A stretch of 64,000 bases of DNA from Burkholderiales bacterium (GCA_036381055.1 DASVDO010000017.1:20025-84024), one strand, 5' to 3'; positions 15,032 through 39,583 are shown, numbered from the stretch's first letter. Numbers and translations: made by a program. Notes: generated by a model from the sequence alone, not told the origin.

Positions 15032-15034
<3 letters not shown>

Positions 15035-15055
15035 TTCGGGGACGGAGCCCGAACT
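15032..15055 (+). repeat. REP-like hairpin repeat, left end of module 1
   Basis: TAATTCGGGGACGGAGCCCGAACT; internal hairpin TTCGGG/CCCGAA; exact reverse complement of 15457-15480; begins with ettA stop TAA. Confidence 0.9.
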
Positions 15056-15078
15056 CCGAACGCTGAGTCAGTCCTTCT

Positions 15079-15396
15079 GTGCGCATCTGGTATCCACTAG
15101 CTTTCGTTGCCGGCGGCACAATCGGGGCTGCGGCGCTGTCTTTTTTGGCGCAGGAACAATTCGAAGTACTCGTCTTCGTCTCGTTCTTTGCCGCAATCCT
15201 GCTTGGATGGGTGACCTTGTTTGAAAACCGGGCAGTGCGGTATGCAGGACTTTTCAGCAGGTGGGGGCTCTTTCGGCCGGTCTGGCGGCAATGGCTATCG
15301 CCTGCTCGTCCATCATGGTCCATCGTCGCGCTTTTGTTTGTTGTCGGTCTCGTCGGGGGAGGGTGCGTTCGTATCCTTCTGCTATCTGAGATCTAA
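15079..15396 (+). CDS. Orphan hydrophobic protein, gene-cassette-like cargo (may be 5'-truncated)
   Basis: 105-aa ORF with about three hydrophobic segments; ~57% GC by hand count over 15061-15420; stop TAA lies inside ATCTAAC. Confidence 0.55.
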   Translation: MRIWYPLAFVAGGTIGAAALSFLAQEQFEVLVFVSFFAAILLGWVTLFENRAVRYAGLFSRWGLFRPVWRQWLSPARPSWSIVALLFVVGLVGGGCVRILLLSEI

Positions 15397-15456
15397 CAGG
15401 GCGTTGGTACGGACACGCGGCGAGCCGACAAGTCGATTCAGGCGACGTACCGCGGA
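15391..15456 (+). other. Truncated integron attC-like site
   Basis: RYYYAAC inverse core ATCTAAC, 5-nt spacer, GTTGGTACGGAC left arm, inner stem CGCGG/CCGCG; no GTTRRRY core because the REP begins at 15457. Confidence 0.5.
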
Positions 15457-15480
15457 AGTTCGGGCTCCGTCCCCGAATTA
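15457..15480 (-). repeat. REP-like hairpin repeat, right end of module 1
   Basis: AGTTCGGGCTCCGTCCCCGAATTA, perfect 24-bp inverse of 15032-15055; contains the cls stop TAA. Confidence 0.9.
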
Positions 15481-16887
15481 GAGGTAGGGGGCGAAGAGGC
15501 GCGCGACGCCGTCGCGCAGGCGCACGGGAAGGCTGCGCTGGGTGTCGTCGGCGAGGGTGTAGCGGCGGGCGCCGGCGATGCGCGCCTGCACCAGGCCCTC
15601 GAGATGCGCGCCGAGCTCGACGCTGTAGCACTCGACGTCGAGCTCGAAGTTGAGCCGCAGGCTGCGCGCGTCCCAGTTCGCCGAGCCGAGCAGCGTCCAG
15701 GCGCCGTCGACCACCATCAGCTTGGAATGGTCGAACGGGCCCGGCCGCAGCCAGACGCGGCAGCCGCGCTCGAGCACCTGCCAGATCTGGCCGAACGCCG
15801 CCCAGTGCACGTGCGGCAGGTCGCTCTTCTCGGGCAGCACGATGTCGACCTCGACGCCGCGCAGCGCCGCCGCGTCGAGCGCGGTGATCAGCGACTGGTC
15901 GGGCAGGAAGTAGGGCGTCATGATCTTCACGGAGCGCTGCGCGGCGCTCAGGCCGCCGATGATCACCCAGCGCAGGCGCTCGAAGCTCTCGTCGGGGCCC
16001 GCCTCGATGCCGCGCGCCAGGATCTCGCCCGCCGGCGCGAGCCGCGGGAACCACTTCTCGCCGCGCAGCGCCACCCCGGTGGTGAAGTGCCAGTCGTCGG
16101 CGAACACTTCCATGAGCTGCGCGAGCACCGGGCCGCGCAGGCGGAAATGCAGGTCGCGGTAGGCTTCCTCCGGGGCCTCGGGCCGCCAGTAGCGGCAGTC
16201 GACGTTGATGCCGCCGGTGAACCCTTCGACGCCGTCGACCACCAGAATCTTGCGATGGTTGCGCAAATTGAGCGCGTGCAGCCGCGCCGGCAGGAGCGGC
16301 GGATTGAACACCGCCACGTCGACCCCGGCGCGGCGCAGCGGCTTCACCGCGCTCGAGCGGGAAAAGCGCGCGTCGACATCGTCGATCAGCACGTGCACCT
16401 CGGCGCCGCGCCGCGCCGCCGCGGCGAGCGCCTCGACGAACTGCGCGCCGACGCCGTCGCCGTCGAAGATGTACGACGACATGGCGATCGAGCGCTGCGC
16501 GCGCCCGATCGCCTCGAGCATCGCCGGGAAGGCGTGCGCGCCGTCGATCAACGCCTCGACCTGGTTGCCGGGCGTGAGCGGGCGCCCCACCACCTGGCCC
16601 ACCAGGCGCGCGAGCGGCGTGAAGTGCCTGCCCGGCTCGCTCGACGGGAACTGCGCCTCGGTGCGATGGCGCACCATGCGGCGGCGCAGCCGCGTGGCGC
16701 GGCGCTCCACGCGGTTGACGCCGATGGTGAGATAGAGCAGCGCGCCGATCGCCGGCAGCAGCCAGACGACCGCGAGCCACAGGGTGGCCGAGCGGCTTTC
16801 GCGCTTGTAGAGCACGGCGTGCGCCGAAGCGACCACCGCGGCGACGAGCACGGCCGCCGCGAAGGCCAGGTCGACGACATCGCGCAT
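15478..16887 (-). CDS. cls: Cardiolipin synthase (phospholipase D family)
   Basis: N-terminal PLDc_N TM hairpin (WLAVVWLLPAIG); two HKD motifs NHRKILVVD and DHSKLMVVD. Confidence 0.9.
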   Translation of the reverse strand: MRDVVDLAFAAAVLVAAVVASAHAVLYKRESRSATLWLAVVWLLPAIGALLYLTIGVNRVERRATRLRRRMVRHRTEAQFPSSEPGRHFTPLARLVGQVVGRPLTPGNQVEALIDGAHAFPAMLEAIGRAQRSIAMSSYIFDGDGVGAQFVEALAAAARRGAEVHVLIDDVDARFSRSSAVKPLRRAGVDVAVFNPPLLPARLHALNLRNHRKILVVDGVEGFTGGINVDCRYWRPEAPEEAYRDLHFRLRGPVLAQLMEVFADDWHFTTGVALRGEKWFPRLAPAGEILARGIEAGPDESFERLRWVIIGGLSAAQRSVKIMTPYFLPDQSLITALDAAALRGVEVDIVLPEKSDLPHVHWAAFGQIWQVLERGCRVWLRPGPFDHSKLMVVDGAWTLLGSANWDARSLRLNFELDVECYSVELGAHLEGLVQARIAGARRYTLADDTQRSLPVRLRDGVARLFAPYL

Positions 16888-16905
16888 GCAGGCGCGAGCA
16901 TGCCT

Positions 16906-16932
16906 GAACTCGGCGCGCCGCGGCGGGTCTTG
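16906..16932 (+). promoter_or_regulatory. Possible sigmaE/AlgU-type promoter
   Basis: GAACTC-N16-TCTTG, an imperfect match to GAACTT-N16-TCTnA, 5 nt before the GTG start. Confidence 0.25.
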
Positions 16933-16937
16933 TTTAC

Positions 16938-17975
16938 GTGCGCGCCATCACCCTGCAGCCGCGCAGCGCCGGCTCGCTGCGCCTGGAAGACATCCCCGAG
17001 CCCGCGGGCGCTGGCAGCCTGCGCGTTCGGGGGCTCGCGGTGGGCGTGTGCGGCACCGACCGCGAGCTGATCGAAGGCGAGCACGGCGAGGCGCCGGCCG
17101 GCCGCAGCCGCCTGGTGATCGGGCACGAGTCGCTCGGCCGGGTGCTGGAAGCGCCGGCCGGGAGCGGCTTCTCGCCGGGCGACATGGTGGTCGGCGTGGT
17201 GCGCCATCCCGACCCGGTGCCGTGCGCGAGCTGCGCGCTCGGCGAATGGGACATGTGCCGCAACGGCCTGTACACCGAGCGCGGCATCAAGCAGGCCGAC
17301 GGCTTCTGCGCCGAGGTGTGGACCACGGCGCCCGGGTTCGCGGTGCGCGTGAGCGGCTCGCTCGGCCTCGCCGCCGTGCTGCTCGAGCCGGCGAGCGTGC
17401 TCGCCAAGGCCTGGGCCCATGTCGACAGCATCGCCGCGCGCACCGCGTGGCGCCCGCGGCGCGCGCTCGTCACCGGCGCCGGGCCGGTCGGGCTGCTCGC
17501 CGCGCTGCTCGGCACGCAGCGCGGCCTGGAGGTGCACGTCTACGACCGCCACGACGCCGGCCCCAAGCCGCGCCTCGTACGCGCCCTCGGCGCGCGCTAC
17601 CACACGGAGTTCCCGAGCCTCGAGTTCGACGTCGCCCTGGAATGCACCGGCGCGGCGAAGGTGGTGCGCGACGCCGTCCTGTCGGCCGCGCCGGGCGGCA
17701 TCGTCTGCCTCACCGGCCTGGGCGGCGTGAAGCACCGGGCGACGTTCGATGCCGCGACGCTCAACGACGCGCTGGTCATGGAGAATCGCGTCGTGTTCGG
17801 CAGCGTCAACGCCAACCTGCGCCACTACCGCGCCGCCGCCGAGGCGCTCGCCGCGGCCGACCGCGCCTGGCTCGACGGTCTGATCACACGCAAGGTGCCG
17901 CTCGCACGCTGGCGCGAAGCTTACGAGAAGCGTCCCGACGACGTGAAGGCGGTGCTGGTCTTCGACGAATCATGA
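16938..17975 (+). CDS. Zn-dependent glucose 1-dehydrogenase-like (MDR family)
   Basis: GVCGTD, GHESLG, CASC...DMC structural Zn, GAGPVG, GSVNANLRHY. Confidence 0.85.
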   Translation: MRAITLQPRSAGSLRLEDIPEPAGAGSLRVRGLAVGVCGTDRELIEGEHGEAPAGRSRLVIGHESLGRVLEAPAGSGFSPGDMVVGVVRHPDPVPCASCALGEWDMCRNGLYTERGIKQADGFCAEVWTTAPGFAVRVSGSLGLAAVLLEPASVLAKAWAHVDSIAARTAWRPRRALVTGAGPVGLLAALLGTQRGLEVHVYDRHDAGPKPRLVRALGARYHTEFPSLEFDVALECTGAAKVVRDAVLSAAPGGIVCLTGLGGVKHRATFDAATLNDALVMENRVVFGSVNANLRHYRAAAEALAAADRAWLDGLITRKVPLARWREAYEKRPDDVKAVLVFDES

Positions 17976-18292
17976 GCGTCGCGTATGCGGTGAAGGAGCC
18001 GAAGCGCGCCGAAGTGGACGCGCTCGCCGGCCCGGCGCTTCTCGAGTTCGGCAGTCCGGGGTGCGGCTATTGCCGTCGCGCAGAACCGCTGATCGACGCA
18101 GCGATGGCTCGACATCCCCGAGTACGTCACCTCAGGATCGCCGACGCGAGCGGCCGGCGCCTGGGCCGCTCGTTCGGCGTCAAGCTGTGGCCGACGCTGG
18201 TTTTCCTGGCCGACGGCCGCGAGGCGGCGCGCCTGGTTCGCCCGACCGACGCCGGCGCGATCGCCGAATTGCTCGCTACAATCGACCCCTGA
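17972..18292 (+). CDS. Thioredoxin family protein
   Basis: ATGA overlap; CGYC active site; VKLWPTLVF cis-Pro motif. Confidence 0.85.
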   Translation: MSVAYAVKEPKRAEVDALAGPALLEFGSPGCGYCRRAEPLIDAAMARHPRVRHLRIADASGRRLGRSFGVKLWPTLVFLADGREAARLVRPTDAGAIAELLATIDP

Positions 18293-18294
18293 CC

Positions 18295-18531
18295 ATGGAC
18301 ATCACCATCACCTACTGCGGCGCCTGAAACTACCTGCCTCGGGCTGCCAGTCTGGCGGCCACACTTAAGGAGGCGCTCGGCGTCGAGCCGCGGCTCGTCA
18401 GGGGCGGGGGCGGCATCTTCGACGTCTCGGTGGACGGCGCGCTCCTCTTCTCCAAGCATCGCGACGGCGCCTTCCCCGCCGAGGAGGCGGTGGTGGCGCG
18501 GCTCAGGGAAAAGGCGGGCAGGCAAGGCTAG
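18295..18531 (+). CDS. SelW/SelT/SelH (Rdx family) selenoprotein, UGA at codon 11 read as Sec
   Basis: MDITITYCGA-U-NYLPRAASLAA...GGGGIFDVSVDG.LLFSK..DG.FP; the frame continues past TGA (18325-18327) with an intact Rdx fold to TAG 18531. Confidence 0.9.
18342..18360 (+). promoter_or_regulatory. Bacterial SECIS element
   Basis: GGCUGCCA-GUC-UGGCGGCC hairpin starting 14 nt after UGA; apical CAGUCUG resembles the fdhF-type SECIS apex. Confidence 0.7.
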
Positions 18532-18722
18532 CGGGGCGACGTCGCGCGGTACTGCGCTTCCAGCAGCCCGGCGAGATCGACGCCCATGAAGCGCGTGCCC
18601 GGCTTGAATCGGGCGCCCGGCGCCACCTGGATGCGACCGCTTTCGAGATAGGTTTCCGCCGGCTCGACGCAAACCCACGTCCCGTCGGGCTGGCGCACGA
18701 AGTCTTTTATGAACTCGCCCAT
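18528..18722 (-). CDS. Small hypothetical protein (64 aa)
   Basis: ATG start, plausible codon use, converges on the Rdx gene with a 4-nt overlap. Confidence 0.6.
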   Translation of the reverse strand: MGEFIKDFVRQPDGTWVCVEPAETYLESGRIQVAPGARFKPGTRFMGVDLAGLLEAQYRATSPR

Positions 18723-18752
18723 GGCGCGGTCCGTGAGGGCGCGGTCCGTGAG
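18723..18752. repeat. 15-bp tandem duplication
   Basis: GGCGCGGTCCGTGAG x2, directly upstream of the 18722 ATG. Confidence 0.85.
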
Positions 18753-18804
18753 CGGGGCGGAGGATCGATACGGAGATGGCGGCTTTCAAGCCCCGTTTCA
18801 AGCC

Positions 18805-18832
18805 CTTGAAAGGGGGCGCGCCGACCCCAGAT
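18805..18832 (+). promoter_or_regulatory. Sigma32 (RpoH) promoter of hsp20
   Basis: CTTGAAA-N13-CCCCAGAT matches the RpoH consensus, upstream of a small heat-shock gene. Confidence 0.75.
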
Positions 18833-18868
18833 CGGACGTCGAACAAACCTTGCAATGGAGGCTACGCT

Positions 18869-19291
18869 ATGAATGAACTCGTCCGCTGGGATCCGTTCAA
18901 GGCGATCGCCCCCTTCGAGAGCCTTTTCGACGTTCCGAGCCTGCTGCGGCCGATGCGCTCCGTGATCTCCGCCGGCCCGCGCATGGACGTGGCGGACTAC
19001 GACGACGCCTACGAGCTCGCGGTGGAGCTGCCGGGCGTGAAGAAGGAAGCGATCCAGGTGAGCGTGCACGAGAACCGCGTCACCGTGTCGGCCGAGCTGC
19101 CGGCGCCGCAGGACGAAGGCAACGGCCAGTGGCTGCTGCGCGAGCGCGACTACGGCAAGTTCTCGCGCACCCTCTCGCTGCCCGAGGCGGTCGACGAGGA
19201 AGCTTCGCAGGCGCGCTACAGTGACGGGGTGTTGACCCTCACCCTGCGCAAGAAGGCCGCGAGCCGGCAGAAGCGCCTCACGATCCACTGA
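18869..19291 (+). CDS. Hsp20/alpha-crystallin small heat-shock protein
   Basis: GGAGG SD; RWDPF, MDV, ELPGVKKE, ERDYGKFSRTLSLP, ARYSDGVLTLTL. Confidence 0.95.
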   Translation: MNELVRWDPFKAIAPFESLFDVPSLLRPMRSVISAGPRMDVADYDDAYELAVELPGVKKEAIQVSVHENRVTVSAELPAPQDEGNGQWLLRERDYGKFSRTLSLPEAVDEEASQARYSDGVLTLTLRKKAASRQKRLTIH

Positions 19292-20406
19292 GAAAGGATC
19301 GCACCGCCGAAGTCGTGGGCGGCGGCTTCGCGGGGCTCGCCGCCGCCTGCGCGCTGGCCCGGCGTGGCTGGCGCGTCCGCGTGCACGAGCGCGCGGACCG
19401 CCTGCGCACTGCCGGCGCCGGCATCAACCTCTACGAGAACGGCCTGCGCGTGCTGGAAGCGCTCGGCGCCCTGGAGGACGCCGTGCGCGACGGCGCGCGC
19501 GCGCGCCTGCGCGAGACGCGCGACGAGCGCGATCGATTGCTCTCCACGCATCCGTGGGGCGAGGCGCGCGTGTTCGGCGTGCTGCGCCAGCGCCTGATCG
19601 ACGCGCTGGCGGCGGCGGCGCGCCGCGCCGGGGCCGAGATACTGACCGAATCGGAAGGGGTGTCGGCCTCGCCGGAAGGCGGCCTGACGCTCGCCGGCGG
19701 CGAGCGTCTGCAGGCCGACCTCGTCGTCGCGGCCGACGGCGTCAATTCGCGCATCCGCGACTCGCTCGGGCTGCTCGCGCATCGCCGCTTCCTGCCCGAC
19801 GGCTGCATCCGCGCGCTGATTCCCAAGGTCGACCCGGCGGAAGGCACCGACGGGCGCACCATCGAGTACTGGTCGGGCAACCGCCGGCTGCTCTACAACC
19901 CCTGCAGCGGCACGCACCTCTATCTCGCGCTCACCATGCTGCACGAGGACGAGCCGGCGCGCATGCTGCCGCTGCGCAAGGAGCTCTGGAAGGCCTCGTT
20001 CCCGCGCCTCGCGCCGCTCGTCGAGCGCATCGGCGAGGAAGCGCGCTACGACCGCTTCGAGTACATCCGCCTCAAACGCTGGTCGGCGGGGCGGGCGGCG
20101 GTGATCGGCGACGCCGCGCACGCCATTCCGCCGAACATCGGCCAGGGCGCCGGCTGCGCGATGATGAACGCCCTGTCGCTCGCGTTCTACCTCGACCGGC
20201 ACGCCACGGTGGAAGAGGCGCTGCACGCCTGGGAGCGCGCCGAGCGGCCGCTGACCGACCATACGCAGCGCATCTCGCTGCTTTTCGGCATGCCGGCGTT
20301 CTGGCCGCCGCGGCTGCGCCGGCTCTTCTACGCGGCGGCGGCGCGCTCGAGGTGGCTCGACGAGCAGCGCACGCGCACCGCGCGCCACATTCCCACGGGC
20401 GCCTAG
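19288..20406 (+). CDS. FAD-dependent monooxygenase (MHPCO/3-hydroxypyridine oxygenase-like group A); start uncertain, CTG proposed
   Basis: AEVVGGGFAGL, ADLVVAADG, IGDAAHAIPPNIGQGAGCAM. The GTG at 19315 lies inside the Rossmann beta-1 strand, so CTG in a CTGA overlap is proposed. Confidence 0.85.
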   Translation: MRKDRTAEVVGGGFAGLAAACALARRGWRVRVHERADRLRTAGAGINLYENGLRVLEALGALEDAVRDGARARLRETRDERDRLLSTHPWGEARVFGVLRQRLIDALAAAARRAGAEILTESEGVSASPEGGLTLAGGERLQADLVVAADGVNSRIRDSLGLLAHRRFLPDGCIRALIPKVDPAEGTDGRTIEYWSGNRRLLYNPCSGTHLYLALTMLHEDEPARMLPLRKELWKASFPRLAPLVERIGEEARYDRFEYIRLKRWSAGRAAVIGDAAHAIPPNIGQGAGCAMMNALSLAFYLDRHATVEEALHAWERAERPLTDHTQRISLLFGMPAFWPPRLRRLFYAAAARSRWLDEQRTRTARHIPTGA

Positions 20407-21404
20407 ACGAGCAGCGGGGGACGGTCGAGGCCGGCGGTCTCGGGCTGGCCGGTCATGACGTTGGCGTTCTGCACCGCCTGGCCGGCGGCGCCCTTGCCGA
20501 GGTTGTCGATCGCCCCGAGCGCGATGACCCATCCGGTGCGCGGGTTGACCGCGTACGAGACGAACGCCAGGTTCGAGCCGCTCGCCCAGGCGGTATGCGG
20601 GCCGCGGCCTTGCTCCGGCGGCATCAGCTTCACGAACGGCGTCTGCGCGTAGCAGCGGCGCGCCGCTTCGTAGAGCCGCGGCGCGCTCGCGGCGCCGCCG
20701 CGAGCCCGGGCGTAGCAGGTGGCGAGGATGCCGCGCGACATCGGCACGAGGTGCGCGGTGAAGGCGAGCGCGCTCGCCCGTGCGCCGACCTGCTGCAGCG
20801 CCTTCTCCATTTCCGGCACGTGCGGATGCGCCTCCAGCCCGTAGGCGAAGGCGTCCTCGTTGGTCTCCACGTAGCCGTAGCCGCTCGCGCCGCCGCGCCC
20901 CGTGCCGGTGACGCCGCTCTTCGCGTCGACGACGACGCCCTCCGACTCGATCAGGCCTTCGGCGACGAGCGGCGCGAGCGCGAGCAGCGCCGCCGCGGCA
21001 TAGCAGCCCGGGTTGGCGATGCGGCTCGAGCGCGCGATCTTCTCGCGCTGCCCCGGCAGCTCGGTGAGGCCGTAGGTCCAGCCCTCGGCGAAGCGATGGT
21101 CGCCGCCGACGTCGACGATCTTCACCGACCCGGGCACGCGCGCGAGCAGCCCGCGCGACACGCCGGTCGGCAGCGAGACGAAGAGCAGGTCGAGGCCGCG
21201 CACCTCCTCGGGGACGAAGCGCTCGATCACCAGCGCGCCGTGCGGCTCGCCGGAGAGCGCGGGAAAGCGCTGCGCGAGCGTCTGCCCCGCGCTGCGCTCT
21301 GCCGCGACGTAGGCGATGCGAAAGCCGGGATGCGCGGCGCACAGGCGAAGCAGCTCCGCGCCGCCGTAGCCGCTCACGCCGACGATGCCGATGCGCAGCG
21401 CCAG
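20403..21404 (-). CDS. argC: N-acetyl-gamma-glutamyl-phosphate reductase; start uncertain, CTG proposed
   Basis: IGIVGVSGYGG, IANPGCY, DAKSGVTGTGR, IDNLGKGAAGQAVQN; GGAG SD 7 nt before CTG 21404. Confidence 0.9.
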   Translation of the reverse strand: MALRIGIVGVSGYGGAELLRLCAAHPGFRIAYVAAERSAGQTLAQRFPALSGEPHGALVIERFVPEEVRGLDLLFVSLPTGVSRGLLARVPGSVKIVDVGGDHRFAEGWTYGLTELPGQREKIARSSRIANPGCYAAAALLALAPLVAEGLIESEGVVVDAKSGVTGTGRGGASGYGYVETNEDAFAYGLEAHPHVPEMEKALQQVGARASALAFTAHLVPMSRGILATCYARARGGAASAPRLYEAARRCYAQTPFVKLMPPEQGRGPHTAWASGSNLAFVSYAVNPRTGWVIALGAIDNLGKGAAGQAVQNANVMTGQPETAGLDRPPLLV

Positions 21405-21408
21405 CGCG

Positions 21409-21810
21409 CTACTCCCCGGTGCCGATCCAGCCCTTCTGCGAGATGTCGAAGATCACGCCGTCCGGATCGCGGAACTTCATCTCGAAGTTGGCTTCGTCCT
21501 GGGTCTTGCCGAGGGTGAAGAAGAACTGGCCGCCCGCGGCCTCCACGCGCCGGCGCGCTTCCTCGAGGTCGTCGACCTGGAAGCCGAAGTGGTGCGCGCC
21601 CACGAAGCCCGCCGCGTCCTTCAGGCCGGAGCCGGTCTCGCCCTTGTACTTGAGCAGGGCGAGGTTGATCACCCCGTCGGAGAGATAGATGCCCGAGCCC
21701 ATCTCGAGGTGCTCCTCGCCGACGCGCTTGAGGTCGAACACCTTCTCGTAGAAGGCCGCCGCCCTCTCCAGGTCCTTCACCACCACCGCGATGTGCCGCA
21801 GCCGCGCCAT
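21409..21810 (-). CDS. VOC/glyoxalase family protein
   Basis: LRHIAVVV..LERAAAFY, HHFGFQVDD, FRDPDGVIFDI. Confidence 0.9.
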   Translation of the reverse strand: MARLRHIAVVVKDLERAAAFYEKVFDLKRVGEEHLEMGSGIYLSDGVINLALLKYKGETGSGLKDAAGFVGAHHFGFQVDDLEEARRRVEAAGGQFFFTLGKTQDEANFEMKFRDPDGVIFDISQKGWIGTGE

Positions 21811-21854
21811 GGCTCCCAGTATAAGACGCTATCGCGGCCGGCTGAACGGGCAGC

Positions 21855-22733
21855 CTAGGCGAGCGCCTTCTGCGTGATCGGCGCCTTCGGCCGCGCGCTC
21901 TCGCCCGGCTCCAGGACGAAGGTGAACTGCAGCTCGTAGCCGCCCGTGGCGGTGCGGGTGAAATTGCCGATCAGCGCGCGCGTCACGCCGAACTGCGAGT
22001 CGGTCTCGAGGTACGGATCCTCCGGGTCGTACACCTGCGAGGCGATGGTCTTGAAGCCCGGCTTGTGGATCAGGAAATGCAGGTGCGCCGGGCGCATGTT
22101 GTGGCGCTTCTGGGCGGCGAGCAGCGTGCCGGTCGGCCCCTCGGTCGGCACCGGGTAGCCCGCGGGCTTGACGCTGCGGAAGCGGAACGACCCGTCGGCC
22201 TCGGTGACGAAGCGGCCGCGCAGGTTCATCTCGGCCTGCGTCGGGTCCTGGTTCTCGTACAGGCCCTTGGGCGAGGATTGCCAGACGTCGACCTCGGCGC
22301 CGGCGATCGGCTTGCCGGCCTCGTCCTTCACCCATCCCTTGAACGTCAGCTCGGGGCCCGGCGTGGGCGAGCGCACGATCGAGTCGCCGTTCGCGCATAG
22401 CGGGCTGCCCGCGCGATAGAACGGCCCGAGGTTGTTCGCCTGGGTCGGCCGGGCGCCGCGCGCGCCGTTGTTGAGCAGGCACACCAGGTTGGAGACGCCG
22501 AGCGCGCCGGCAAGCAGCATCGCCTCGTTGTGGCTGGGCGTCGTGTGCTTGCCGATGGCGTTCACCAGCGCGATCGCCTCCTGGAACTCCTTCTCGGTGA
22601 GGCGCGCTTCGCGCACGAAGGCGTGCAGGTGCTTGACCAGCAGCTCGAGCAGCTCGCGCGTGCGCGGGTTGGGCGTGCGGTGCATCTCGGCGAGCACCGC
22701 CTTGGTGACGTCTTCCTGGCTCTCGATGATCAT
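21855..22733 (-). CDS. Intradiol ring-cleavage dioxygenase (hydroxyquinol/catechol 1,2-dioxygenase-like)
   Basis: N-terminal linker helix; LGPFY, VWQSSPKGLY, GYPVP, MRPAHLHF iron ligands. Confidence 0.9.
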   Translation of the reverse strand: MIIESQEDVTKAVLAEMHRTPNPRTRELLELLVKHLHAFVREARLTEKEFQEAIALVNAIGKHTTPSHNEAMLLAGALGVSNLVCLLNNGARGARPTQANNLGPFYRAGSPLCANGDSIVRSPTPGPELTFKGWVKDEAGKPIAGAEVDVWQSSPKGLYENQDPTQAEMNLRGRFVTEADGSFRFRSVKPAGYPVPTEGPTGTLLAAQKRHNMRPAHLHFLIHKPGFKTIASQVYDPEDPYLETDSQFGVTRALIGNFTRTATGGYELQFTFVLEPGESARPKAPITQKALA

Positions 22734-22734
22734 C

Positions 22735-22760
22735 GACTTTCTCCGGCGAAGGAGAAAGTC
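22735..22760 (-). promoter_or_regulatory. Perfect 10-bp hairpin covering the dioxygenase Shine-Dalgarno
   Basis: Minus strand GACTTTCTCC-TTCGCC-GGAGAAAGTC, 1 nt before ATG. Confidence 0.6.
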
Positions 22761-32150: not shown

Positions 32151-32188
32151 GGGCTGGCGCAGCGCGGCGAAGGCGCGCGGCGCGGCGG

Positions 32189-32203
32189 GATTCGGGGTCA
32201 GGG
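32189..32203 (+). repeat. Partial solo copy of the REP-like repeat
   Basis: GATTCGGGGTCAGGG, 15/15 identical to 38701-38715, intergenic between GST and MFS. Confidence 0.5.
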
Positions 32204-32216
32204 CTGCGAGCTCCGG

Positions 32217-32894
32217 TCAGTCTCGATCGAGCTCGGGATAGTGGCGGAAAATGCCCTGCCGGTTGAAGGCGATTCGCCTTTCGGAACGCAGGTAGGCCGC
32301 GAGCCGCGGCCGCGCCGCGACGCGCTCGTGCAGCGCGAGCAGCTTCGGTATCCCGCCTTCCAGCCGGCGCAGGGTGCGCGGAAACGCGTAGCGCAGGCCC
32401 TCGATCATCTGGAAGAGCGAGAGATCGAGGTACGTCGTGCCGCGCGGCCGCGGCAGCGTCTCGAAGTAGCGCAGGAACTTCGGCAGCCGGCGGGCGCGGA
32501 AGTCGGCGGCGCGCCGCAGCGCCTCGCGCTTCTGCGCTTCGTAGTAGAGCCCGCTGCCGATCGGATGATGGGTGTCGTGCACCTCGGCGAGCCAGTCGGC
32601 GATGGTGAGCTGCTGCTGGTGCAGCCACAGGCGCGCCGCCTCGTTCTTCGGCGCGAGGCCGAGGCGCGGGCCGAGGTAGAAGAGGATGTTCGCGGTCTGC
32701 GCCACGGCGAGCCTGCCGTGCACCAGGAAGGGCGGCGCGAAGATGTGCCGCCTGGCCATTTCCTTCTCCATGGCGGCGACGCCGCGCGGCCCGCGCGCCA
32801 CGTCCTCGTAGCGCGCGCCGGCGTCCTCGAGCGCGAGGCGCACGAACTCGCCGCGTCCCTGGATCGACGGCCAGTAGTAGAGGCGGTAGCTCAC
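32217..32894 (-). CDS. Glutathione S-transferase family protein
   Basis: GTGA overlap; YWPSIQGRGEFVRLALE, FAPPFL, AQTANIL, HDTHHP, YLDLSLFQ. Confidence 0.9.
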   Translation of the reverse strand: MSYRLYYWPSIQGRGEFVRLALEDAGARYEDVARGPRGVAAMEKEMARRHIFAPPFLVHGRLAVAQTANILFYLGPRLGLAPKNEAARLWLHQQQLTIADWLAEVHDTHHPIGSGLYYEAQKREALRRAADFRARRLPKFLRYFETLPRPRGTTYLDLSLFQMIEGLRYAFPRTLRRLEGGIPKLLALHERVAARPRLAAYLRSERRIAFNRQGIFRHYPELDRD

Positions 32895-33886
32895 GCGGCG
32901 CGCTTTTCGCGCCAGCCGGCGGGCGAGACGCCGACGTGGCGCTTGAAGGCGCGGCTGAACGCCGCCTCGGATTCGTAGCCGACGCGCTCGGCGAGCGCCG
33001 CCATGCCGAGCTGCGTGCGGCGCAGCAGGTCGGCGGCGAGCTGCAGGCGCCACTGCGTGAGATAGCGCATCGGCGAGACGCCGAGCAGGCGGCGGAACCG
33101 CTCGGCGAGCACCGAGCGCGACACCGCGACGCGGCGCGCCAGGCCTTCCACCGTCCACGCCGCCTCGGGCCGGGCGTGCAGCAGGACCATCGCCCGGCCG
33201 ATCACCGGGTCCCTGAGCGCGGCGAGCCAGCCCGTCTGCTCGGGCGGCATCTGCTCGACGTGCTGGCGCAGGCAGTCGGCGAGCACCGCCTCGAGCAGGC
33301 GTGCGGCGAGCGCCTCGCCGCCCGGACGGCCGGCGCTCTCGAGCGTGTAGCGCACGCTCGCGGTGCGCCACTGCGCGGCGGAGGGCGAGCTCGGCCGCAG
33401 GTGCAGCAGCCGCGGCAGCGCCTGCAGTATCGGGCTGAAGAGCAGATCGGCGCAGCTCAGGTAGCCGCACAGCAGGCGCGTCGGCGCGCCGCCGCCTTCG
33501 CTGCGGCACACGACGGGCAGCTCGCTCCAGGGCGGCGGCGGCAGCAGCTCGACGATCGGCACCGCCTGCGCGTCGTCGGGAAAGCGCACCGTGTGCACGT
33601 CGCAGTACGGCAGCACGACCGCGTCGCCTTCGCTCGCCTGCGCGCTTTCGCCGCTCGCCAGGCTGATGCGGAAGCGGCCCTCGACCGCGACGTGCAGGAG
33701 CACGAGCCGCTGCGCGCCGGGCACCAGCACGCGGGCGAGCGTCGCCTCGTCGGCGGAGACGAAGCCCCAGGGCGCGCTGAACTCGCCGCGCAGGAACACC
33801 GCGCTCGCGAGGTGCATGCGGCGCAGGACGTCGGAGAGCAGGTCCAGATTCGGCGTCTCGAGCATGTGATCCGGCGTCCCTGCCAT
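32891..33886 (-). CDS. AraC family regulator with N-terminal cupin
   Basis: DLLSDVL, WTVEGLARRVAVSRS, GYESEAAFSRAFKR; alternative ATG at 33865. Confidence 0.9.
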   Translation of the reverse strand: MAGTPDHMLETPNLDLLSDVLRRMHLASAVFLRGEFSAPWGFVSADEATLARVLVPGAQRLVLLHVAVEGRFRISLASGESAQASEGDAVVLPYCDVHTVRFPDDAQAVPIVELLPPPPWSELPVVCRSEGGGAPTRLLCGYLSCADLLFSPILQALPRLLHLRPSSPSAAQWRTASVRYTLESAGRPGGEALAARLLEAVLADCLRQHVEQMPPEQTGWLAALRDPVIGRAMVLLHARPEAAWTVEGLARRVAVSRSVLAERFRRLLGVSPMRYLTQWRLQLAADLLRRTQLGMAALAERVGYESEAAFSRAFKRHVGVSPAGWREKRAA

Positions 33887-33944
33887 GGCGCGAGGCCGCC
33901 GCGCGGTCAATAGTAGCGCCGTCATTCACACCAGGAGAACGGCG

Positions 33945-34217
33945 ATGCCGAAATTCGTGATCGAGCGGGAGATTCCCGGCGCCGGCCGGATGAGCGCGAT
34001 GGAGCTTAAGGGCGCGGCGCAGAAATCGTGCAGCGTGCTGCGCGGCATGGGACCGAAGATCCAGTGGCAGCAGAGCTACGTCACCGACGACAAGCTCTAT
34101 TGCGTCTACCTCGCCGAGAGCGAGCGCGACGTGCTCGAGCACGCGCGCACCTCCGGATTTCCCGCGAGCCGCGTGAGCGCGGTGCGCGCGGTGATCGACC
34201 CGGCCACGGCGGAGTGA
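33945..34217 (+). CDS. DUF4242 domain protein
   Basis: AGGAG SD; MPKFVIEREIPGAG, WQQSYVTDDKLYCVY, HARTSGFP. Confidence 0.85.
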   Translation: MPKFVIEREIPGAGRMSAMELKGAAQKSCSVLRGMGPKIQWQQSYVTDDKLYCVYLAESERDVLEHARTSGFPASRVSAVRAVIDPATAE

Positions 34218-34218
34218 C

Positions 34219-34707
34219 CTAGAGCCGCGCCGGCTTGTCCGGCAGCTCGTTCGGGTTGACGCCGCGCGCCGGGAAATGGCGCTCGAGGATGCGCGTCACG
34301 CCCTCGATCGCCTCGAGCGCGCCGGCGAGGTACGCCTTGCCGCGGAAGCGCGCCTGCATGGCGCGGCAGATCGCGTCCCACTCCGGCTGCGGCACGCGCG
34401 CGGCGATGCCGCGGTCGGCGACGATCTCGATGCGGTGGTCGAGGAGCTGCACGTAGATCAGCACGCCGGTGTTCTCCTCGGTGTCCCACACGCCGAGCTG
34501 CGCGAACACCTCGCGCGCCCGCTCGCGCGTCGGCTGGCGCAGCCGGTCGAGGGGCAGCGTGCCTTCGACGGCGAAGCGGATCTCGCCGCGGTGGCGGCGC
34601 TCGGAAGCCTTGATCGCCGCCTCGATGGCGGCGAGCGCCGACGCGGGGAAGGGCCGCTCGGCGATCCACGGCGGCAGCAGCAGGTGCTTGAGCACGCGGC
34701 TCACCAT
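34219..34707 (-). CDS. TPM domain protein (short, cytoplasmic type)
   Basis: ERRHRGEIRFAVE, GVWDTEENTGVLIY, IVADRGI. Confidence 0.85.
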   Translation of the reverse strand: MVSRVLKHLLLPPWIAERPFPASALAAIEAAIKASERRHRGEIRFAVEGTLPLDRLRQPTRERAREVFAQLGVWDTEENTGVLIYVQLLDHRIEIVADRGIAARVPQPEWDAICRAMQARFRGKAYLAGALEAIEGVTRILERHFPARGVNPNELPDKPARL

Positions 34708-35585
34708 GAGCCGCTCGCGCCGCCGCCGCCCGAGGCGCCGCCGCCGCCGCCGAAGCCGCCGCCGCCGAAGCCGCCGCCGAAGCCGCCGCCGCCGAAGCCG
34801 CCGCGGCCCCAGTAGCCGCCGCCCAGCCCGCCGTAGCCGCCGAGCCGGCGGCGCCGCGGCATGCCGCCGATGCCGCCGGTGAGGAGCAGGATGAAGAAGG
34901 CGGCGACGCCGATCAACGCGGCGACCGCCGCCGAGCCGAGCAGCATCCAGCTCGCGAACCCGGCGACGCCGCTGCCGAAGCCCGCGCCGAGGAAGCGCCC
35001 GAACATCGCGCGCAGCGCGCCGCCCGCGACCAGCACGAAGAAGAAAAGGAAGATCAGCACGTCGGGCTGGAAGCGCGACGACCCCGGGGGCCCGTGCGCC
35101 GCGGGCGGCGGCAGCTTCTCGCCTTCGATGACGCGGATGATGCGGTCCACGCCGGCGCGCAGGCCGCCGTAGAAGTCGCCGGCGCGGAAGCGCGGCGTGA
35201 TGTCGTTGTCGATGATGCGCTTGGCGATCGCGTCGGGCAGCGCGCCTTCCAGGCCGTAGCCGACCTCGATGCGCAGCCGCCGGTCGTCCTTGGCGACCAC
35301 CAGCAGCACCGAGTCGTCGACGCCCTTGCGGCCGAGCTTCCAGACCTCCTCGACGCGCACCGCGTACTGCTCGATCGTCTCGGGCCGCGTGCTCGGCACC
35401 ATGAGCACCGCCACCTGCGCGCCCTTGCGCGCCTCGAGCTCGGCGAGCGTCTGCTCGAGCGCCGCGCGCTGCTGCGCGCTCAGCGTGCCGGTGAGGTCGG
35501 TGACGCGCGCCTCGAGCGGCGGCACCTCCGCGGCGAAGGCGAGCAGGGGCGCGAGCAGCAGGAACGCCCACGGCGCGCCGGTCAC
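34701..35585 (-). CDS. TPM domain membrane protein (YgcG-like) with Gly-rich tail
   Basis: GTGA overlap with lemA; VTDLTGTL, GRKGVDD, RIEVGYGLEG; GGGFGGGG..SGGGGASGSW tail. Confidence 0.9.
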   Translation of the reverse strand: MTGAPWAFLLLAPLLAFAAEVPPLEARVTDLTGTLSAQQRAALEQTLAELEARKGAQVAVLMVPSTRPETIEQYAVRVEEVWKLGRKGVDDSVLLVVAKDDRRLRIEVGYGLEGALPDAIAKRIIDNDITPRFRAGDFYGGLRAGVDRIIRVIEGEKLPPPAAHGPPGSSRFQPDVLIFLFFFVLVAGGALRAMFGRFLGAGFGSGVAGFASWMLLGSAAVAALIGVAAFFILLLTGGIGGMPRRRRLGGYGGLGGGYWGRGGFGGGGFGGGFGGGGFGGGGGASGGGGASGSW

Positions 35586-36172
35586 TTCTTGCCCGTCCCG
35601 AAGTCGACCGTGGGCGGCCGTGCGATCGCCTTCTCGTCCTCCACCGTGAACTGCGCCTTCGGCTCGAAGCCGAACAGCATCGCCGTCAGGTTGCTCGGGA
35701 ACTGGCGCACCGTGACGTTGTATTCCTGCGTCGCCTCGATGAAGCGCCGGCGCGCCACGGCGATGCGGTTCTCGGTGCCCTCGAGCTGCGCCTGCAGCTC
35801 GCGGAAGTTCTGGTCGGACTTGAGCTGCGGATAGTTCTCGGCCACCACCAGCAGGCGCGACAGCGCGCCGGTCAGCTCGCCCTGCGCCTGCGCGAAGCGC
35901 TGCATCGCCTGCGGATCGTCGACCATGTCGCGCGTCACCTGCACCGAGCCGACGCGCGCGCGCGCCTCGGTCACGCCGAGCAGCACGTCCTTCTCCTGCT
36001 GCGCGTAGCCCTTCACGGTGTTCACCAGGTTGGGAATCAGGTCGGCGCGGCGCTGGTACTGGTTGATCACTTCGGACCACGCCGCCTTCACCTGCTCGTC
36101 CTGCCGCTGCAGGGTGTTGTAGCCGCAGCCGGACAGGAATAGCACTACAGACAGGGCGAGGATAGTGCGCAT
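35582..36172 (-). CDS. lemA: LemA family protein
   Basis: GCGYN, QYQRRADLIPNLV, ENYPQLKSDQNF, LEGTENRIAVAR, FPSNL. Confidence 0.95.
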   Translation of the reverse strand: MRTILALSVVLFLSGCGYNTLQRQDEQVKAAWSEVINQYQRRADLIPNLVNTVKGYAQQEKDVLLGVTEARARVGSVQVTRDMVDDPQAMQRFAQAQGELTGALSRLLVVAENYPQLKSDQNFRELQAQLEGTENRIAVARRRFIEATQEYNVTVRQFPSNLTAMLFGFEPKAQFTVEDEKAIARPPTVDFGTGKK

Positions 36173-36245
36173 CGGGGGACGACCTCCGCAGAAGGACGAA
36201 ATATAGAGCAGGAACCGCGCCTCGGCCGGGCTGGTCGAAAAGCGC

Positions 36246-36851
36246 ATGGCCGACGTGGTGCTCTCCTGCGAGACCTGCGGGCTGCCGCAGCGTGTCGAGC
36301 CGCTGCCGCCCGGCACCGTCGCCGAGTGCGCGCGCTGCGGCTACCCGGTGACCTCGCACGGCGCCGGCCTCGACGTCGCCGCGGCGCTCGCGCTCGCGGC
36401 GCTGGTGCTGTACGTCCCCGCGAACCTGTATCCGATCCTGCGCATGGAGATCTACGGCGCCTACTCGGAAAGCACCGTGTGGGACGGCGTGGTGAGCCTG
36501 TGGCAGTACGGCGAGTACTTCGTGGCGATCGTCGTGTTCCTGGCGAGCATCGTCGTGCCGCTGCTCAAGCTGCTCGGCCTCTTCTTCCTCGTGGCGAGCG
36601 TCAAGTGGGGCCGCGGCCGGCGGCTGCGCGGCCGCACGCGCATCTACAAGTTCATCGACGCGATCGGCCCGTGGGCGATGCTCGACGTGTTCCTGCTGGC
36701 GGTGCTGGTGGCGCTGGTCAAGCTCGGCAGCCTCGGACAGGTCGTTCCCGGGCCGGGGCTGCTCGCCTTCTGCCTGGTCGTGGTGCTGACGCTGCTCGCC
36801 TCGCAGGCGTTCGACACCAAGCTCATCTGGGAGAGCCATGAGCGGCGATGA
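36246..36851 (+). CDS. pqiA: Paraquat-inducible protein A (single-repeat form)
   Basis: CETC...CARC Zn ribbon; LYVPANLYPI; VPLLKL; IGPWAMLDVF. Confidence 0.85.
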   Translation: MADVVLSCETCGLPQRVEPLPPGTVAECARCGYPVTSHGAGLDVAAALALAALVLYVPANLYPILRMEIYGAYSESTVWDGVVSLWQYGEYFVAIVVFLASIVVPLLKLLGLFFLVASVKWGRGRRLRGRTRIYKFIDAIGPWAMLDVFLLAVLVALVKLGSLGQVVPGPGLLAFCLVVVLTLLASQAFDTKLIWESHERR

Positions 36852-37704
36852 GATGCCGCGCGCGCGCGTGCGGCGCCGCCGGCGGGTGCGCTGGGTGTGG
36901 GTGGTGCCGCTGGTCGCCGTGGCGGTGGCGGCGTGGCTGGTGTTCCAGCGCATCGAGCAGCGCGGCCCGGAGATCACCGTGACCTTCGAGGACGGCGCGG
37001 CGCTGCGCGTCGGCCAGACGCCGCTGCGCTATCGCGGCGTGCAGATCGGCGAGGTGTCGGGCGTGGGCCTGTCCGAGGACGAGCAGCACGCCGTGGTGCG
37101 CATCCGCCTGCACCGCGACGCGGGGCGGATCGCGCGCGAAGGCTCGCGCTTCTGGATCGTGCGCCCGCGCGTCGGCTGGGGCAGCTTCAGCGGGCTGAAC
37201 ACCGTGCTGTCGGGACCCGAGATCCAGGTGATCCCGGGCAGGCCCGACGCGCCGCGGCAGACCGAGTTTGCCGGGCTCGAGGCGCCGCCGGCGGCCATCG
37301 AAGGCGGCCTGCACATCGTGCTGCGCGCCGAGCGGCCGAAGATGCGCCCCGACGCGCCGGTGTACTACCGCGGCGTCGAGGTCGGCACGGTGCAGAAGCT
37401 CGACCTCGCGCCGAACGCGCTCTCGGCCGACGTGCACGTGATCATCTACCCGCGCTTCGCCGCCCTGGTGCGCGAAGGCTCGGCGTTCTGGGACGTGAGC
37501 GGCGTGGCGGTGAAGGGCGGCATCTTCAAGGGCATGCAGGTCGAGCTCGAGTCGTTGCGCTCGTTCATCACCGGCGGCGTCGAGTTCGCGACGCCGCCCG
37601 GCACGCGGCGCGCCAAGCCCGGGACCGTGTTCTTCCTCTACGACCAGCCCAAGCCGGAGTGGCTCGCCTGGGCGCCGAAAATTCCCATCCCCGGGGAAAA
37701 GTAG
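36838..37704 (+). CDS. pqiB: PqiB/MlaD family MCE protein (two MCE domains)
   Basis: WVWVVPLVA, GPEITVTF, LRYRGVQIGEV, FWIVRPR, PVYYRGVEVGTV, FITGGVEFATP. Confidence 0.8.
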   Translation: MSGDEMPRARVRRRRRVRWVWVVPLVAVAVAAWLVFQRIEQRGPEITVTFEDGAALRVGQTPLRYRGVQIGEVSGVGLSEDEQHAVVRIRLHRDAGRIAREGSRFWIVRPRVGWGSFSGLNTVLSGPEIQVIPGRPDAPRQTEFAGLEAPPAAIEGGLHIVLRAERPKMRPDAPVYYRGVEVGTVQKLDLAPNALSADVHVIIYPRFAALVREGSAFWDVSGVAVKGGIFKGMQVELESLRSFITGGVEFATPPGTRRAKPGTVFFLYDQPKPEWLAWAPKIPIPGEK

Positions 37705-37745
37705 TTAGGCTTCGCCCCGTGGCGCAGGCGGCGAAGAGATCGGGC

Positions 37746-38702
37746 ATGAAGCGCGCGCCGGCGCGGCGCCGGCCGCGCAAGGCGAAAGCGCACTCGCGCG
37801 GCCGCGCCGCCGCCGAGTGCCGCGTCGACACGCTGTCGCCCGAAGCCGATCAGGCGAGGATCCGCGTCGAGAACGAGGGCGGCTACGTGCTCGGCTGCTA
37901 CGCCGATCCGCTCGGCGGGCAGCCGGTGCTGGTGGCGGTGCTGCCGATCGACGCGGTGGAGCCGACGCCTTTCCAGCGCGACCTGTCGCAGGCGCACCAC
38001 CGCAAGCTCGCCGACGTGCTCGACCGCACCGGCATCTTCCTCGATCCGATCATCGCGGTCAGCGCGCCGGAGAAGGGCTTCTGGACGCCGAACGGGCGCC
38101 ACCGCCTGGAGGCGATGCGCCGGCTCGGCGCGAGGGCGATCACCGCGCTGGTGGTGCCCAAGCGCGAGATCGCGTGGCAGATCCTCGCCCTCAACACCGA
38201 GAAGGCGCACAACCTGCGCGAGCGCGCGCTCGAGGTGATTCGCATCTACCGCGGGCTGATCGACGAAGACGGGCGGCGCGCCGAGTCGTCGTTCGCGTTC
38301 TACCTGGAGGAGGCCTCGCTCGTGACGATCGGCGTGTGCTACGAGCGCAACCCGAAGTTCGCCGGCGCGGCCTACCACCCGATCGTGCGCCGCCTGCTCG
38401 CCTTCAGCGACGAGCCCGTGGCGAAGGCGATCAAGGCGCACGAGCGCTACGCCGCTCTGCTGCTCGAGCTCGACGAGCGCGTCAACGAGGTGATCAAGAA
38501 GCTGAAGGCGCGCGGCTTCACCAGCCCGTACCTGCGCGCCTTCGTCGTCGCGCGCATCAACCCGCTGCGCTGGATCCAGGGCGAGCCGCCGCCGCTCGAG
38601 GGCGTGCTCGAGACCATGCGCGAGCGCGCCGCGCGCTTCAACACCGACAAGGTGCGCCAGGAGGATCTCGCCGCAGCCGGCGGCCCGGCCGACGAGGACT
38701 GA
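37746..38702 (+). CDS. ParB N-terminal (ParB/Srx) domain protein
   Basis: PTPFQRDLS, FLDPII, TPNGRHRL, ALNTEKAHNLRER. Confidence 0.8.
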   Translation: MKRAPARRRPRKAKAHSRGRAAAECRVDTLSPEADQARIRVENEGGYVLGCYADPLGGQPVLVAVLPIDAVEPTPFQRDLSQAHHRKLADVLDRTGIFLDPIIAVSAPEKGFWTPNGRHRLEAMRRLGARAITALVVPKREIAWQILALNTEKAHNLRERALEVIRIYRGLIDEDGRRAESSFAFYLEEASLVTIGVCYERNPKFAGAAYHPIVRRLLAFSDEPVAKAIKAHERYAALLLELDERVNEVIKKLKARGFTSPYLRAFVVARINPLRWIQGEPPPLEGVLETMRERAARFNTDKVRQEDLAAAGGPADED

Positions 38703-38724
38703 TTCGGGGTCAGGGTCGTAATTC
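38700..38724 (+). repeat. REP-like repeat, left end of RAYT module
   Basis: TGATTCGGGGTCAGGGTCGTAATTC; perfect inverse of 39559-39583; begins with the ParB-gene stop TGA. Confidence 0.9.
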
Positions 38725-38759
38725 GTCAACCGGCCGGGCGCCTCGCGCGTTGTGCAGTC

Positions 38760-39316
38760 ATGGCGAGGCATCCGCGAGTCACTCTACCCGGCGTAGCGCT
38801 GCACGTCCGGCAGCGAGGCGTCGACGGGACGGCGTGCTTTCGCGAGGAGGCCGACAGGCTCGTTTATCTGTCTGCCCTGCGCGAGCTCCTCGGGAGGTCG
38901 CAGTGCGCCTTGCACGCGTACTGCCTGATGACTAACCACGGCACGGTCGCACGGGGACGTTGTGGGACGGCCGGTTTCGCTCGTGCCTGGTCGAATCGCG
39001 CGAATACGTGCTCGCGTGCCACCGCTACACAGAGCGCGATCCGGTCCGTGCCGGCATGGTTGCCTGTCCTTCGGCGTACCGCTGGTCGAGCTTCAAGGCG
39101 AACAGCGGTGAAGCCGAGGCTGCATTCGTTTCCGCGCTGCGTGAAGCGACCGACGGCGGTCTGCCGATGGTCGGACAGGCGCTGCGTTCCCGGCTGGAAG
39201 CCATGGGATGGCGCGTGGAGAAGGGCAAGCCGGGAAGGCGATCGGCGCCGACGCCCGATACGGCGCCGCTCAACGCCGAGCCGCAGTTCTCAGCGCGGCG
39301 AGAATTACGACCCTGA
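38760..39316 (+). pseudogene. REP-associated tyrosine transposase (RAYT, HUH/Y1) pseudogene
   Basis: Frame 1 MARHPRVTLPG..HVRQRG...HAYCLMTNH; frameshift near 38940 into HGRTGTLWDGRFRSCLV...RYTERDPVRAGMV....YRWSS; the second His of HUH and the following helix are deleted. Confidence 0.85.
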
Positions 39317-39325
39317 CCCCGATTC
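39302..39325 (-). repeat. REP-like repeat, internal copy
   Basis: GAATTACGACCCTGACCCCGATTC; 21-bp perfect inverse of 38704-38724; direct repeat of 39559-39582 with one mismatch. Confidence 0.9.
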
Positions 39326-39562
39326 CGCCTCGCAGGCGGCGGCTTCGCTGCGACAGCGCTGCTGGCAGGCCTGGTTCTCCGGGGCCTCGGTGGTGGTCTT
39401 GCGGCAATTGGCGATGCAGGCGTTGAGCGCGGCGCGGCAGCTCGGCGGCGCTTCGCTCTCGGCGCCGAGGTACTGCTGGTAGACGTAGTAGCCGATCACG
39501 GCGAGGGCGATCAGCACGATCAGCGTGCCGACCGCTCCGCCGCGCTGGCTGCGAGGAAGAAT
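39305..39562 (-). CDS. Small pilin-like / Cys-rich membrane-anchored protein; start uncertain
   Basis: Frame reads ILPRSQRG-GAVGTLIVLIALAVIGYYVY...C...C...C...C...C...C...ESGSGS*; stop supplied by the internal REP; ATT 39562 or GTG 39517. Confidence 0.6.
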   Translation of the reverse strand: MLPRSQRGGAVGTLIVLIALAVIGYYVYQQYLGAESEAPPSCRAALNACIANCRKTTTEAPENQACQQRCRSEAAACEAESGSGS

Positions 39563-39583
39563 TACGACCCTGACCCCGAATCA
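39559..39583 (-). repeat. REP-like repeat, right end of RAYT module
   Basis: GAATTACGACCCTGACCCCGAATCA, 25/25 inverse of 38700-38724; contains the GST stop TGA. Confidence 0.9.

Follow-up and report, generated by a model that had tools for sequence, protein, structure and literature searches.

Why should a short repeat begin exactly where a gene ends? The question is raised by a 64,000-nucleotide stretch from Burkholderiales bacterium (C17:20025-84024 of a 3.1-Mb, 71%-GC draft genome, here G000), hereafter called the window, in which copies of a TTCGGGG repeat directly follow the stop codons of genes. A first-pass annotation of this DNA had described four such ends on the stops of convergent genes and proposed an element that targets or supplies T(A/G)A stops. 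TRATTCGGGG occurs at four sites in the window (15032 and 38700 on the plus strand, 15480 and 39583 on the minus strand), compared with 0.15 expected from shuffles, and at all four sites the TRA is indeed the in-frame stop of a high-scoring open reading frame (ORF). The genes stopped in this way encode EttA, a cardiolipin synthase, a 328-aa conserved protein and a glutathione S-transferase (GST). Their orthologues in 4 to 13 species of the same genus end at the same residue position. Judged by these alignments, the C-termini and the stop positions of the four genes are native.

Repeat families and docking across the genome

Five repeat families in this genome are associated with RAYT transposases, which are IS200/IS605-related HUH enzymes, and the repeats with TTCGGGG make up two of them; they are of the TIRtron/REPtron kind. 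The two window loci carry different families: family A (TTCGGGGACGGAGCCCGAA; 43-46 genome copies) lies at ettA/cls, and family B (TTCGGGGTCAGGGTCGTAATTC; 61 copies, 44 of them perfect across the 18-nt core) between the 328-aa gene and the GST gene. Families C (AAAAnGGTGACwGTCACCnTTTT; 39 loci, 78 ends), D (AAAAAGGGGTCAGAGCAATTTTCC; 37 copies) and E (ACCCnAAAAnCAGGGACAGACCACGTTTT; 32 copies) were found by word counts in intergenic DNA and in the flanks of Y1-transposase genes; 14-mer counts over the whole genome were dominated by GC-rich coding words, and the restriction to intergenic DNA resolved the families. All units share an A/T-rich foot around a G-rich core of the GGGG(A/T)C(A/G)G type. 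The GGGGWSAS motif is present in B and D (GGGGTCAG), with one-base variants in A (GGGGACGG), E (AGGGACAG) and C (GGTGACAG). Because the consensus ends of all five families carry neither GTAG nor CGTC, the families are filed as terminal inverted repeat (TIR) type and not as GTAG repetitive extragenic palindromic (REP) sequences. Folded as single units, C reached -11.1 kcal/mol (z -5.9) and A -5.5 kcal/mol (z -2.2), and B, D and E folded no better than shuffles (-0.6 to -2.8 kcal/mol). We also observed nested composite palindromes at C26:23194-23292, C65:25996-26088, C67:22437-22536 and C25:3729-3793, in the order B(+), A-core(+), T/A-rich loop, A-core(-) and B(-), in which convergent genes either have the outer B ends docked on their stops or read into these ends.

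A tblastn inventory of the genome gave three intact and two decayed RAYT genes, one gene per family. The intact genes (PF01797) lie on contigs C56, C9 and C90 between inverted copies of E, C and D, respectively, and the decayed ones belong to family B (in the window) and family A (on contig C2, between A-like units), which bears out the earlier suggestion of an enzyme of the IS200/IS605 HUH class. Among 80 related RAYT loci from outside the genus (many phyla; best relatives 35-52% identical), 61 have inverted repeats with AAAAGGGGACAG-type cores, a match to the GGGGWSAS TIRs of PMC3733652. The A-run, which pairs with a 3' T-run, belongs to the conserved repeat across phyla. The cassettes with the transposase genes dock like the other copies, for example as TAA-E...E-TTA on C56. 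The intact RAYT genes at C9:8172-8864 and C90:8637-9383 read into their own downstream repeat, one stopping at the 3' edge of the repeat (TAG) and the other inside the unit (TGA), and therefore the repeats supply the stops of transposases too.

A repeat end was counted as docked when a gene stop ended 0-3 nt from its conserved 5' boundary, with the distance measured to the nearest gene on the same strand. Across the genome, 71 of 254 repeat ends were docked, compared with 1.55% of 200,000 random intergenic positions, and the enrichment of repeats at stop codons supposed from the window is thus genome-wide. By family, the docked ends were 21 of 46 for A, 23 of 61 for B, 9 of 78 for C, 10 of 37 for D and 8 of 32 for E, the last comprising four at the standard boundary and four with a longer ACCC boundary. 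The docked genes had a median codon score of 191, with a score of at least 60 in 67 of the 71. Copies of B in the sister species G001 showed the same docking pattern. Furthermore, 31 more genes run into a unit, with stops that lie within the unit or shortly beyond its 3' edge. The internal TAA of B ends 14 genes with the tail ...(N/D)SGSGS, and the internal TGA of C (of GGTGAC) ends seven, confirming that the elements supply stops. All three frames relative to B are used, with 14 flush on TRA, seven on TGA-A and 14 read in.

The position of the repeats depended on the type of junction. Repeats were found at 57 of 437 convergent junctions (13%), 74 of 2211 co-directional ones (3.3%) and 8 of 409 divergent ones (2%). 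Repeat-free convergent pairs had a median gap of -4 nt, i.e., an overlap of about 4 nt is typical, and 67% had a gap of at most 5 nt. Zero-gap junctions offer only about 1-3 permissible positions each, yet they account for ~40% of the repeat-containing intergenic regions. In co-directional spacers with 30 nt or more to spare, 15 of 35 copies were flush to the upstream stop, compared with 3.3 expected.

The stop codons themselves were unevenly involved. Stop usage in the genome is 54% TGA, 36% TAG and 10% TAA, with the same proportions in the highest-scoring genes, which is unusual for a genome of 71% GC. A repeat lay within 12 nt of 11.4% of TAA, 2.9% of TGA and 1.75% of TAG stops genome-wide. 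Sequence comparison indicates that the position of docked stops is native but the identity of the codon often is not. For example, a docked gene on C9 ends at the same residue position in 14 of 14 genus members, and its TAA corresponds to TGA in 12 relatives and TAG in one. Likewise, relatives have TGA or TAG where cls has its docked TAA. The position of the Sua5 terminus is as in G001. The eleven flush A copies stood on four TAG, four TAA and three TGA stops, and after TAG stops B was placed at the first AA, 3-6 nt downstream.

In B, position -1 was A in 60 of 61 copies and position -2 a purine in 59 of 61, with T at position -3 in 19 of 61 only; in B copies away from real stops, this T was no commoner than background (4 of ~40). 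A G at position -2 occurred almost only within TGA (10 of 13), which argues that the native TGA was retained in those copies. A C stood before 37 of the 43 docked TGA codons, compared with a background of 54% (p = 7e-6), and CTGA was equally enriched in families with other cores. No target-site duplications or direct repeats were seen at the flanks.

Reading into a repeat has a cost. A histidine kinase lacks the final A of its ...ELPLA end, the tail of an EAL protein is 1-6 residues short, and a small ORF in the window lacks its native (Q/R)KR end. The read-in gene on C66 had only paralogues of at most 54% identity for comparison and was uninformative. The notion of an insertion rule that never disrupts coding sequence is thus sound for the four intact window genes and fails for read-in genes, which are 1-6 C-terminal residues down, and for the small ORF, whose start codon was removed by a B copy.

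Explanations for the exact junctions

The data show what the repeats are, that they dock across the genome, that stop positions are native and that stops are supplied. The exactness of docking probably stems from an insertion bias for A-rich, stop-like sites combined with strong purifying selection. Copies have become fixed at the 3' boundaries of ORFs in a very compact 71%-GC genome, with the junction falling within or directly after the stop codon. The purine-rich 5' end of the repeat (RA in A and B; AAAA in C, D and E) would overlap the final base or two of the stop. Host T or TG and repeat A(A) would then rebuild a stop at its native position, and many docked stops would thereby become TAA. 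Since the A-run belongs to the repeat in distant taxa, this division of the junction bases is the simplest reading. A junction one to a few codons further upstream lets the gene read in and end in or just past the repeat, at the TAA of B or the TGA of C. Between convergent genes natively without a spacer, only flush insertions would survive; because such genes abut, a tolerated insertion must be flush on both sides, which accounts for much of the exact fit. Compaction does not explain everything, because flush docking persists where there is room and because of the stop-type and CTGA biases. The insertion bias would favour TAA over TGA over TAG, with TGA sites being mostly CTGA, which recalls the published RAYT cleavage between C and T. 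A more specific version has the RAYT transferring strands between the third-position C of the final sense codon and the stop's T, so that the A-rich end is joined inside the stop (C-T/AA...). We offer this step only tentatively and think it unlikely, but if true it would be a genuine sequence-directed rule for docking on stop codons, accounting for the CTGA bias, for docked stops having become TAA and for junctions exact to the single nucleotide. It would also be the first concrete target rule for the spread of REP and TIR sequences.

Several points weigh against this explanation. In other, less compact taxa, RAYT cassettes were flush with the flanking stops in only ~6-8 of 61 cases, and therefore docking is not intrinsic to this family of enzymes; selection and compaction may contribute more to it than targeting does. 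The test in spacers with free room could be biased if selection keeps repeats off downstream promoters. The displaced native stop that simple insertion between C and T predicts 3' of docked units was found nowhere, no stop triplets following these units, and this variant was rejected. No movement was observed. The relatives used for comparison are different species, and the junction bases are thus not assignable with certainty to host or element. Finally, genes were called with our own codon-bias caller and no standard annotator, which gives robust stops but not robust starts.

Selection alone is the first alternative to weigh, with insertion blind to the site and survivors flush because ORFs abut. 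The short gaps of repeat-free convergent pairs favor it, as do the ettA and cls stops that abut or overlap in G007, G009 and G001, the cassettes of other taxa that are seldom flush and the unenriched T at position -3 of undocked B. However, selection alone does not predict the 15 of 35 repeats that are flush despite at least 30 nt of spare spacer, nor the preference for TAA over TAG stops and for CTGA. It also fits poorly with the few permissible positions at zero-gap junctions, which hold ~40% of the repeat-containing regions although tens of kb of other intergenic DNA are available. We therefore regard selection as the sole cause as possible but doubtful.

Placement could instead reflect a benefit to the host, with a repeat after the stop serving termination or the tuning of expression, protecting the 3' end of mRNA or acting as a terminator between convergent genes. 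The four- to six-fold enrichment of repeats at convergent junctions is in line with this idea, and strong hairpins with A and T runs on either side are formed by units of C and by inverted pairs. In E. coli, REPs at most 15 nt from a stop are reported to stall ribosomes and lower expression (PMC12306157; 10.1101/2024.07.17.603846). However, single copies of B, D and E dock as often yet fold no better than shuffles, and a benefit leaves the single-nucleotide exactness, the shift to TAA and the CTGA bias unexplained, making this an improbable origin of the pattern. The related suggestion that REP hairpins replace the native terminator proved weak, since B, D and E singles are unfolded, A is modest and only C is a strong hairpin. 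A and B units have no U-tracts, and a terminator consensus scan gave marginal terminator-like matches in two places, one A arm and a hybrid hairpin of the GST end and the adjoining B copy. Terminator replacement by singletons is thus not supported; inverted pairs and family C are set apart from this verdict.

Taken literally, the first-pass proposal was a guide-directed enzyme of the IS200/IS605 style with a T(A/G)A target, inserting always 3' of it. The near-invariant A and purine before B are consistent with such a target, as are the HUH-related enzyme and the absence of target-site duplications. However, T precedes them in only a third or so of the B copies (19 of 61) and is unenriched off real stops, A is flush on TAG as often as on TAA, and B lies 3-6 nt past TAG. 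The RA itself is probably element sequence, given the A-run that is conserved across phyla and pairs with the T-run. The native stop positions and genome-wide docking fit the idea that stops are targeted, but insertion does not require a T(A/G)A motif, and the literal proposal is very unlikely. Two other target candidates were rejected. An AATTC target, read from the AATTC...AATTC direct repeat at the ends of B units, is absent from the empty sites of relatives (TAA-TCA, TAA-CTA and CTAG), and a guide-target duplex between host CTGA and the TCAG of the B and D core was unspecific, CTGA being equally enriched with other cores. Miniature inverted-repeat elements of an IS630/Tc1-type DDE transposon with TA duplication, unrelated to RAYTs, can be dismissed almost outright: the ettA/cls element can be read as TA-[ATTCGGGG...CCCCGAAT]-TA, but an empty site so read would leave cls without a stop, the flank tables show TGA, CAA, GAA or TAG at other copies with no direct repeat and rule out this model, and each family flanks its own Y1 transposase gene.

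Three junction events in the window

The four window ends represent three junction events involving two families, and not, as first described, the outer ends of two elements. Approximate empty sites were taken from the orthologous loci of other species in the genus. In the first event, a pair of A units with 401 nt of foreign DNA lies between the abutting stops of ettA and cls. The ettA gene, for an ABC-F translational throttle, spans 13388-15034 on the plus strand with its TAA at 15032-15034 (NCBIfam NF008775 EttA, E 1e-290); the equivalog alignment reaches profile position 555 of 556, and the C-terminus KPLKT ends at the same position as the KALKK or KALKS of orthologues. An A unit (TTCGGGGACGGAGCCCGAACT; 15035-15055, plus strand; hairpin of -5.5 kcal/mol) is flush to this stop, and its arm forms a perfect 24-nt inverted repeat with 15457-15480. 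The inverted A unit (15457-15477, minus strand) is flush to the stop of cls (15478-16878, minus strand), a TAA read as TTA on the plus strand at 15478-15480. Cardiolipin synthase matches TIGR04265 to position 483 of 483 and ends in FAPYL, and its relatives end in FAPLL, FAPFL or FAPYL with TGA or TAG stops. The two stops abut as TAA-TCA in G007 and TAA-CTA in G009 and overlap as CTAG in G001, and in G000 the 443 bp from TTCGGGG to CCCCGAA stand exactly between TAA and TTA, leaving both C-termini unchanged.

The insert between the A arms (15056-15456, strand unassigned) has 58% GC, compared with 71% for the genome. In blastn searches against the own genome and the G006 locus, only the arms were matched, and no second genomic copy was found; its ORFs of 104-105 aa had no Pfam match. 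In G006, the closest relative, an A pair is flush on the orthologous ettA TAA (G006:C418, L006 2095-2260) with a different interior of ~110 nt and an extra A copy. Between these A copies and cls lies a 1.1-kb gene that G000 lacks (L006 2260-3380). A search by blastn for kinship between the 401-nt cargo and the 1.27-kb insert at this G006 site found none. The ettA/cls junction is a hotspot of repeated insertion. Two further A pairs with long interiors were found at C78:18188-18539 (352 nt) and C57:17805-18073 (269 nt), one of them with a called ORF, and A-flanked cargo modules like that at 15035-15477 may form a small class.

In the second event, a decayed cassette of B1, RAYT and B2 separates the stop of the 328-aa gene from that of a native small ORF. 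For the 328-aa gene (37716-38702, plus strand; TGA at 38700-38702), 11 other genomes of the genus have orthologues with 64-81% identity, which end in ...PDED, PDEAD or PDEE. The protein had no Pfam or NCBIfam match, and its earlier label as ParB-like is unsupported. B1 (38703-38724, plus strand), the left arm of the cassette, is flush to its stop. The RAYT remnant (38760-39313, plus strand) was recognized through its blastx matches, at 53-60% identity, to the genome's three intact RAYTs; residues 1-60 are in one frame and ~92-154 in another, with ~61-91 deleted. B2 (39302-39323, minus strand), an ATCGGGG variant, is the right arm. It provides the ESGSGS tail and stop codon with which the small ORF, a Cys-rich membrane ORF native to the locus (39305-39562, minus strand; no Pfam or NCBIfam match), now ends; the native tails are CEQKR in G003 and CEARKR in G006. 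In G003, a diverged 20-nt B/A-like unit (TTACATACCTGTCCCCGATT; G003:C25, L048 2098-2125) exactly fills the gap from the 328-aa gene's TAA to the small ORF's TCA and may be a solo remnant where G000 has the cassette.

The third event is B3 (39559-39580, minus strand), an independent single copy that separates the small ORF's start from the GST stop, to which it is flush. The GST gene (39581-40231, minus strand; TGA, read as TCA on the plus strand at 39581-39583) has a product with GST_N and GST_C Pfam matches that ends in ...LKL, the end also seen in G003, where the stop is TAG, and in G006, where it is TGA. The small ORF is conserved in G003, where its GTG start overlaps the GST TAG, and in G006, where it starts with ATG. 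Its native start was lost to B3 in G000, and only ATT or an internal GTG is retained as a start in 39535-39583, so the ORF may be silenced or start unconventionally. In G006, a different AATTC-footed palindrome (ATTCCGGACGACGTCCGTAATT; C124 ~4935-4972, L054) is flush on the orthologous GST stop (TGA-ATTCC...), which represents either independent docking at the same stop or turnover of the family.

Comparison with known repeats

The landing-site choice of REPs and REPINs is poorly understood (PMC8266576), and the docking described here gives a modest clue to that of such repeats. Five families with their enzyme genes and ~250 ends, more than a quarter of them joined to stops with single-base precision, constitute a natural data set, and the measured biases (TAA over TGA over TAG; CTGA) are explicit substrates for assays of cleavage and strand transfer. 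For annotation, about 30 proteins have repeat-encoded tails such as ...NSGSGS, some genes are damaged, such as the small ORF at its start, and the identity of the stop codon at docked genes is partly repeat-derived.

The closest known system is the TIRtron (TIRYT), described as a Y1 transposase gene between inverted repeats with a GGGGWSAS motif and no GTAG tag (Di Nocera, De Gregorio and Rocco 2013, PMC3733652); several TIR families and several transposase genes occur together in the S. maltophilia genome. The repeats here are similar in having a Y1 gene between GTAG-less inverted repeats with a GGGG(A/T)(C/G)A(C/G) core, moderately abundant gene-less copies as singles and dimers, and several families per genome. 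Unlike in that account, five families of 30-60 copies share a 3.1-Mb genome, and stop docking is quantified. The available text of that paper reports the supply of stops by repeats for GTAG REPs only.

GTAG REPs and REPINs (REPtrons) are likewise extragenic and enriched between convergent and co-directional genes, mostly at most 20 bp from the 3' ends of ORFs, and RAYT stop codons have been found near or immediately before the downstream REP (PMC2817692). The families here differ in the lack of GTAG, in an A-rich end that is shared with the stop and gives TAA or TGA rather than TAG, and in that most singles are non-palindromic. Cleavage by RAYT occurs between C and T (PMC8266576). As in IS200/IS605, the enzyme is related, there is no target duplication, the dinucleotide 5' of B is near-invariant and there is a CTGA bias. 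Unlike there, no fixed T(A/G)A target was found, guide-target pairing was not identified here, and the transposase genes are single-copy and apparently immobile.

Liang, Rudd and Deutscher, as cited in PMC12306157, proposed for E. coli that about half of 496 REPs lie at most 15 nt from a stop, where they would affect translation by down-regulating it. A large share of the repeats here similarly lies a few nt from the upstream stop, but that work concerns RNA hairpins, whereas most units here are unfolded alone. REP ends that supply stop codons are already published, and the docking in this genome is an ordinary example of this published habit. What is new is a GTAG-less, GGGGWSAS-type set of five families that docks with TAA and TGA, with the biases quantified.

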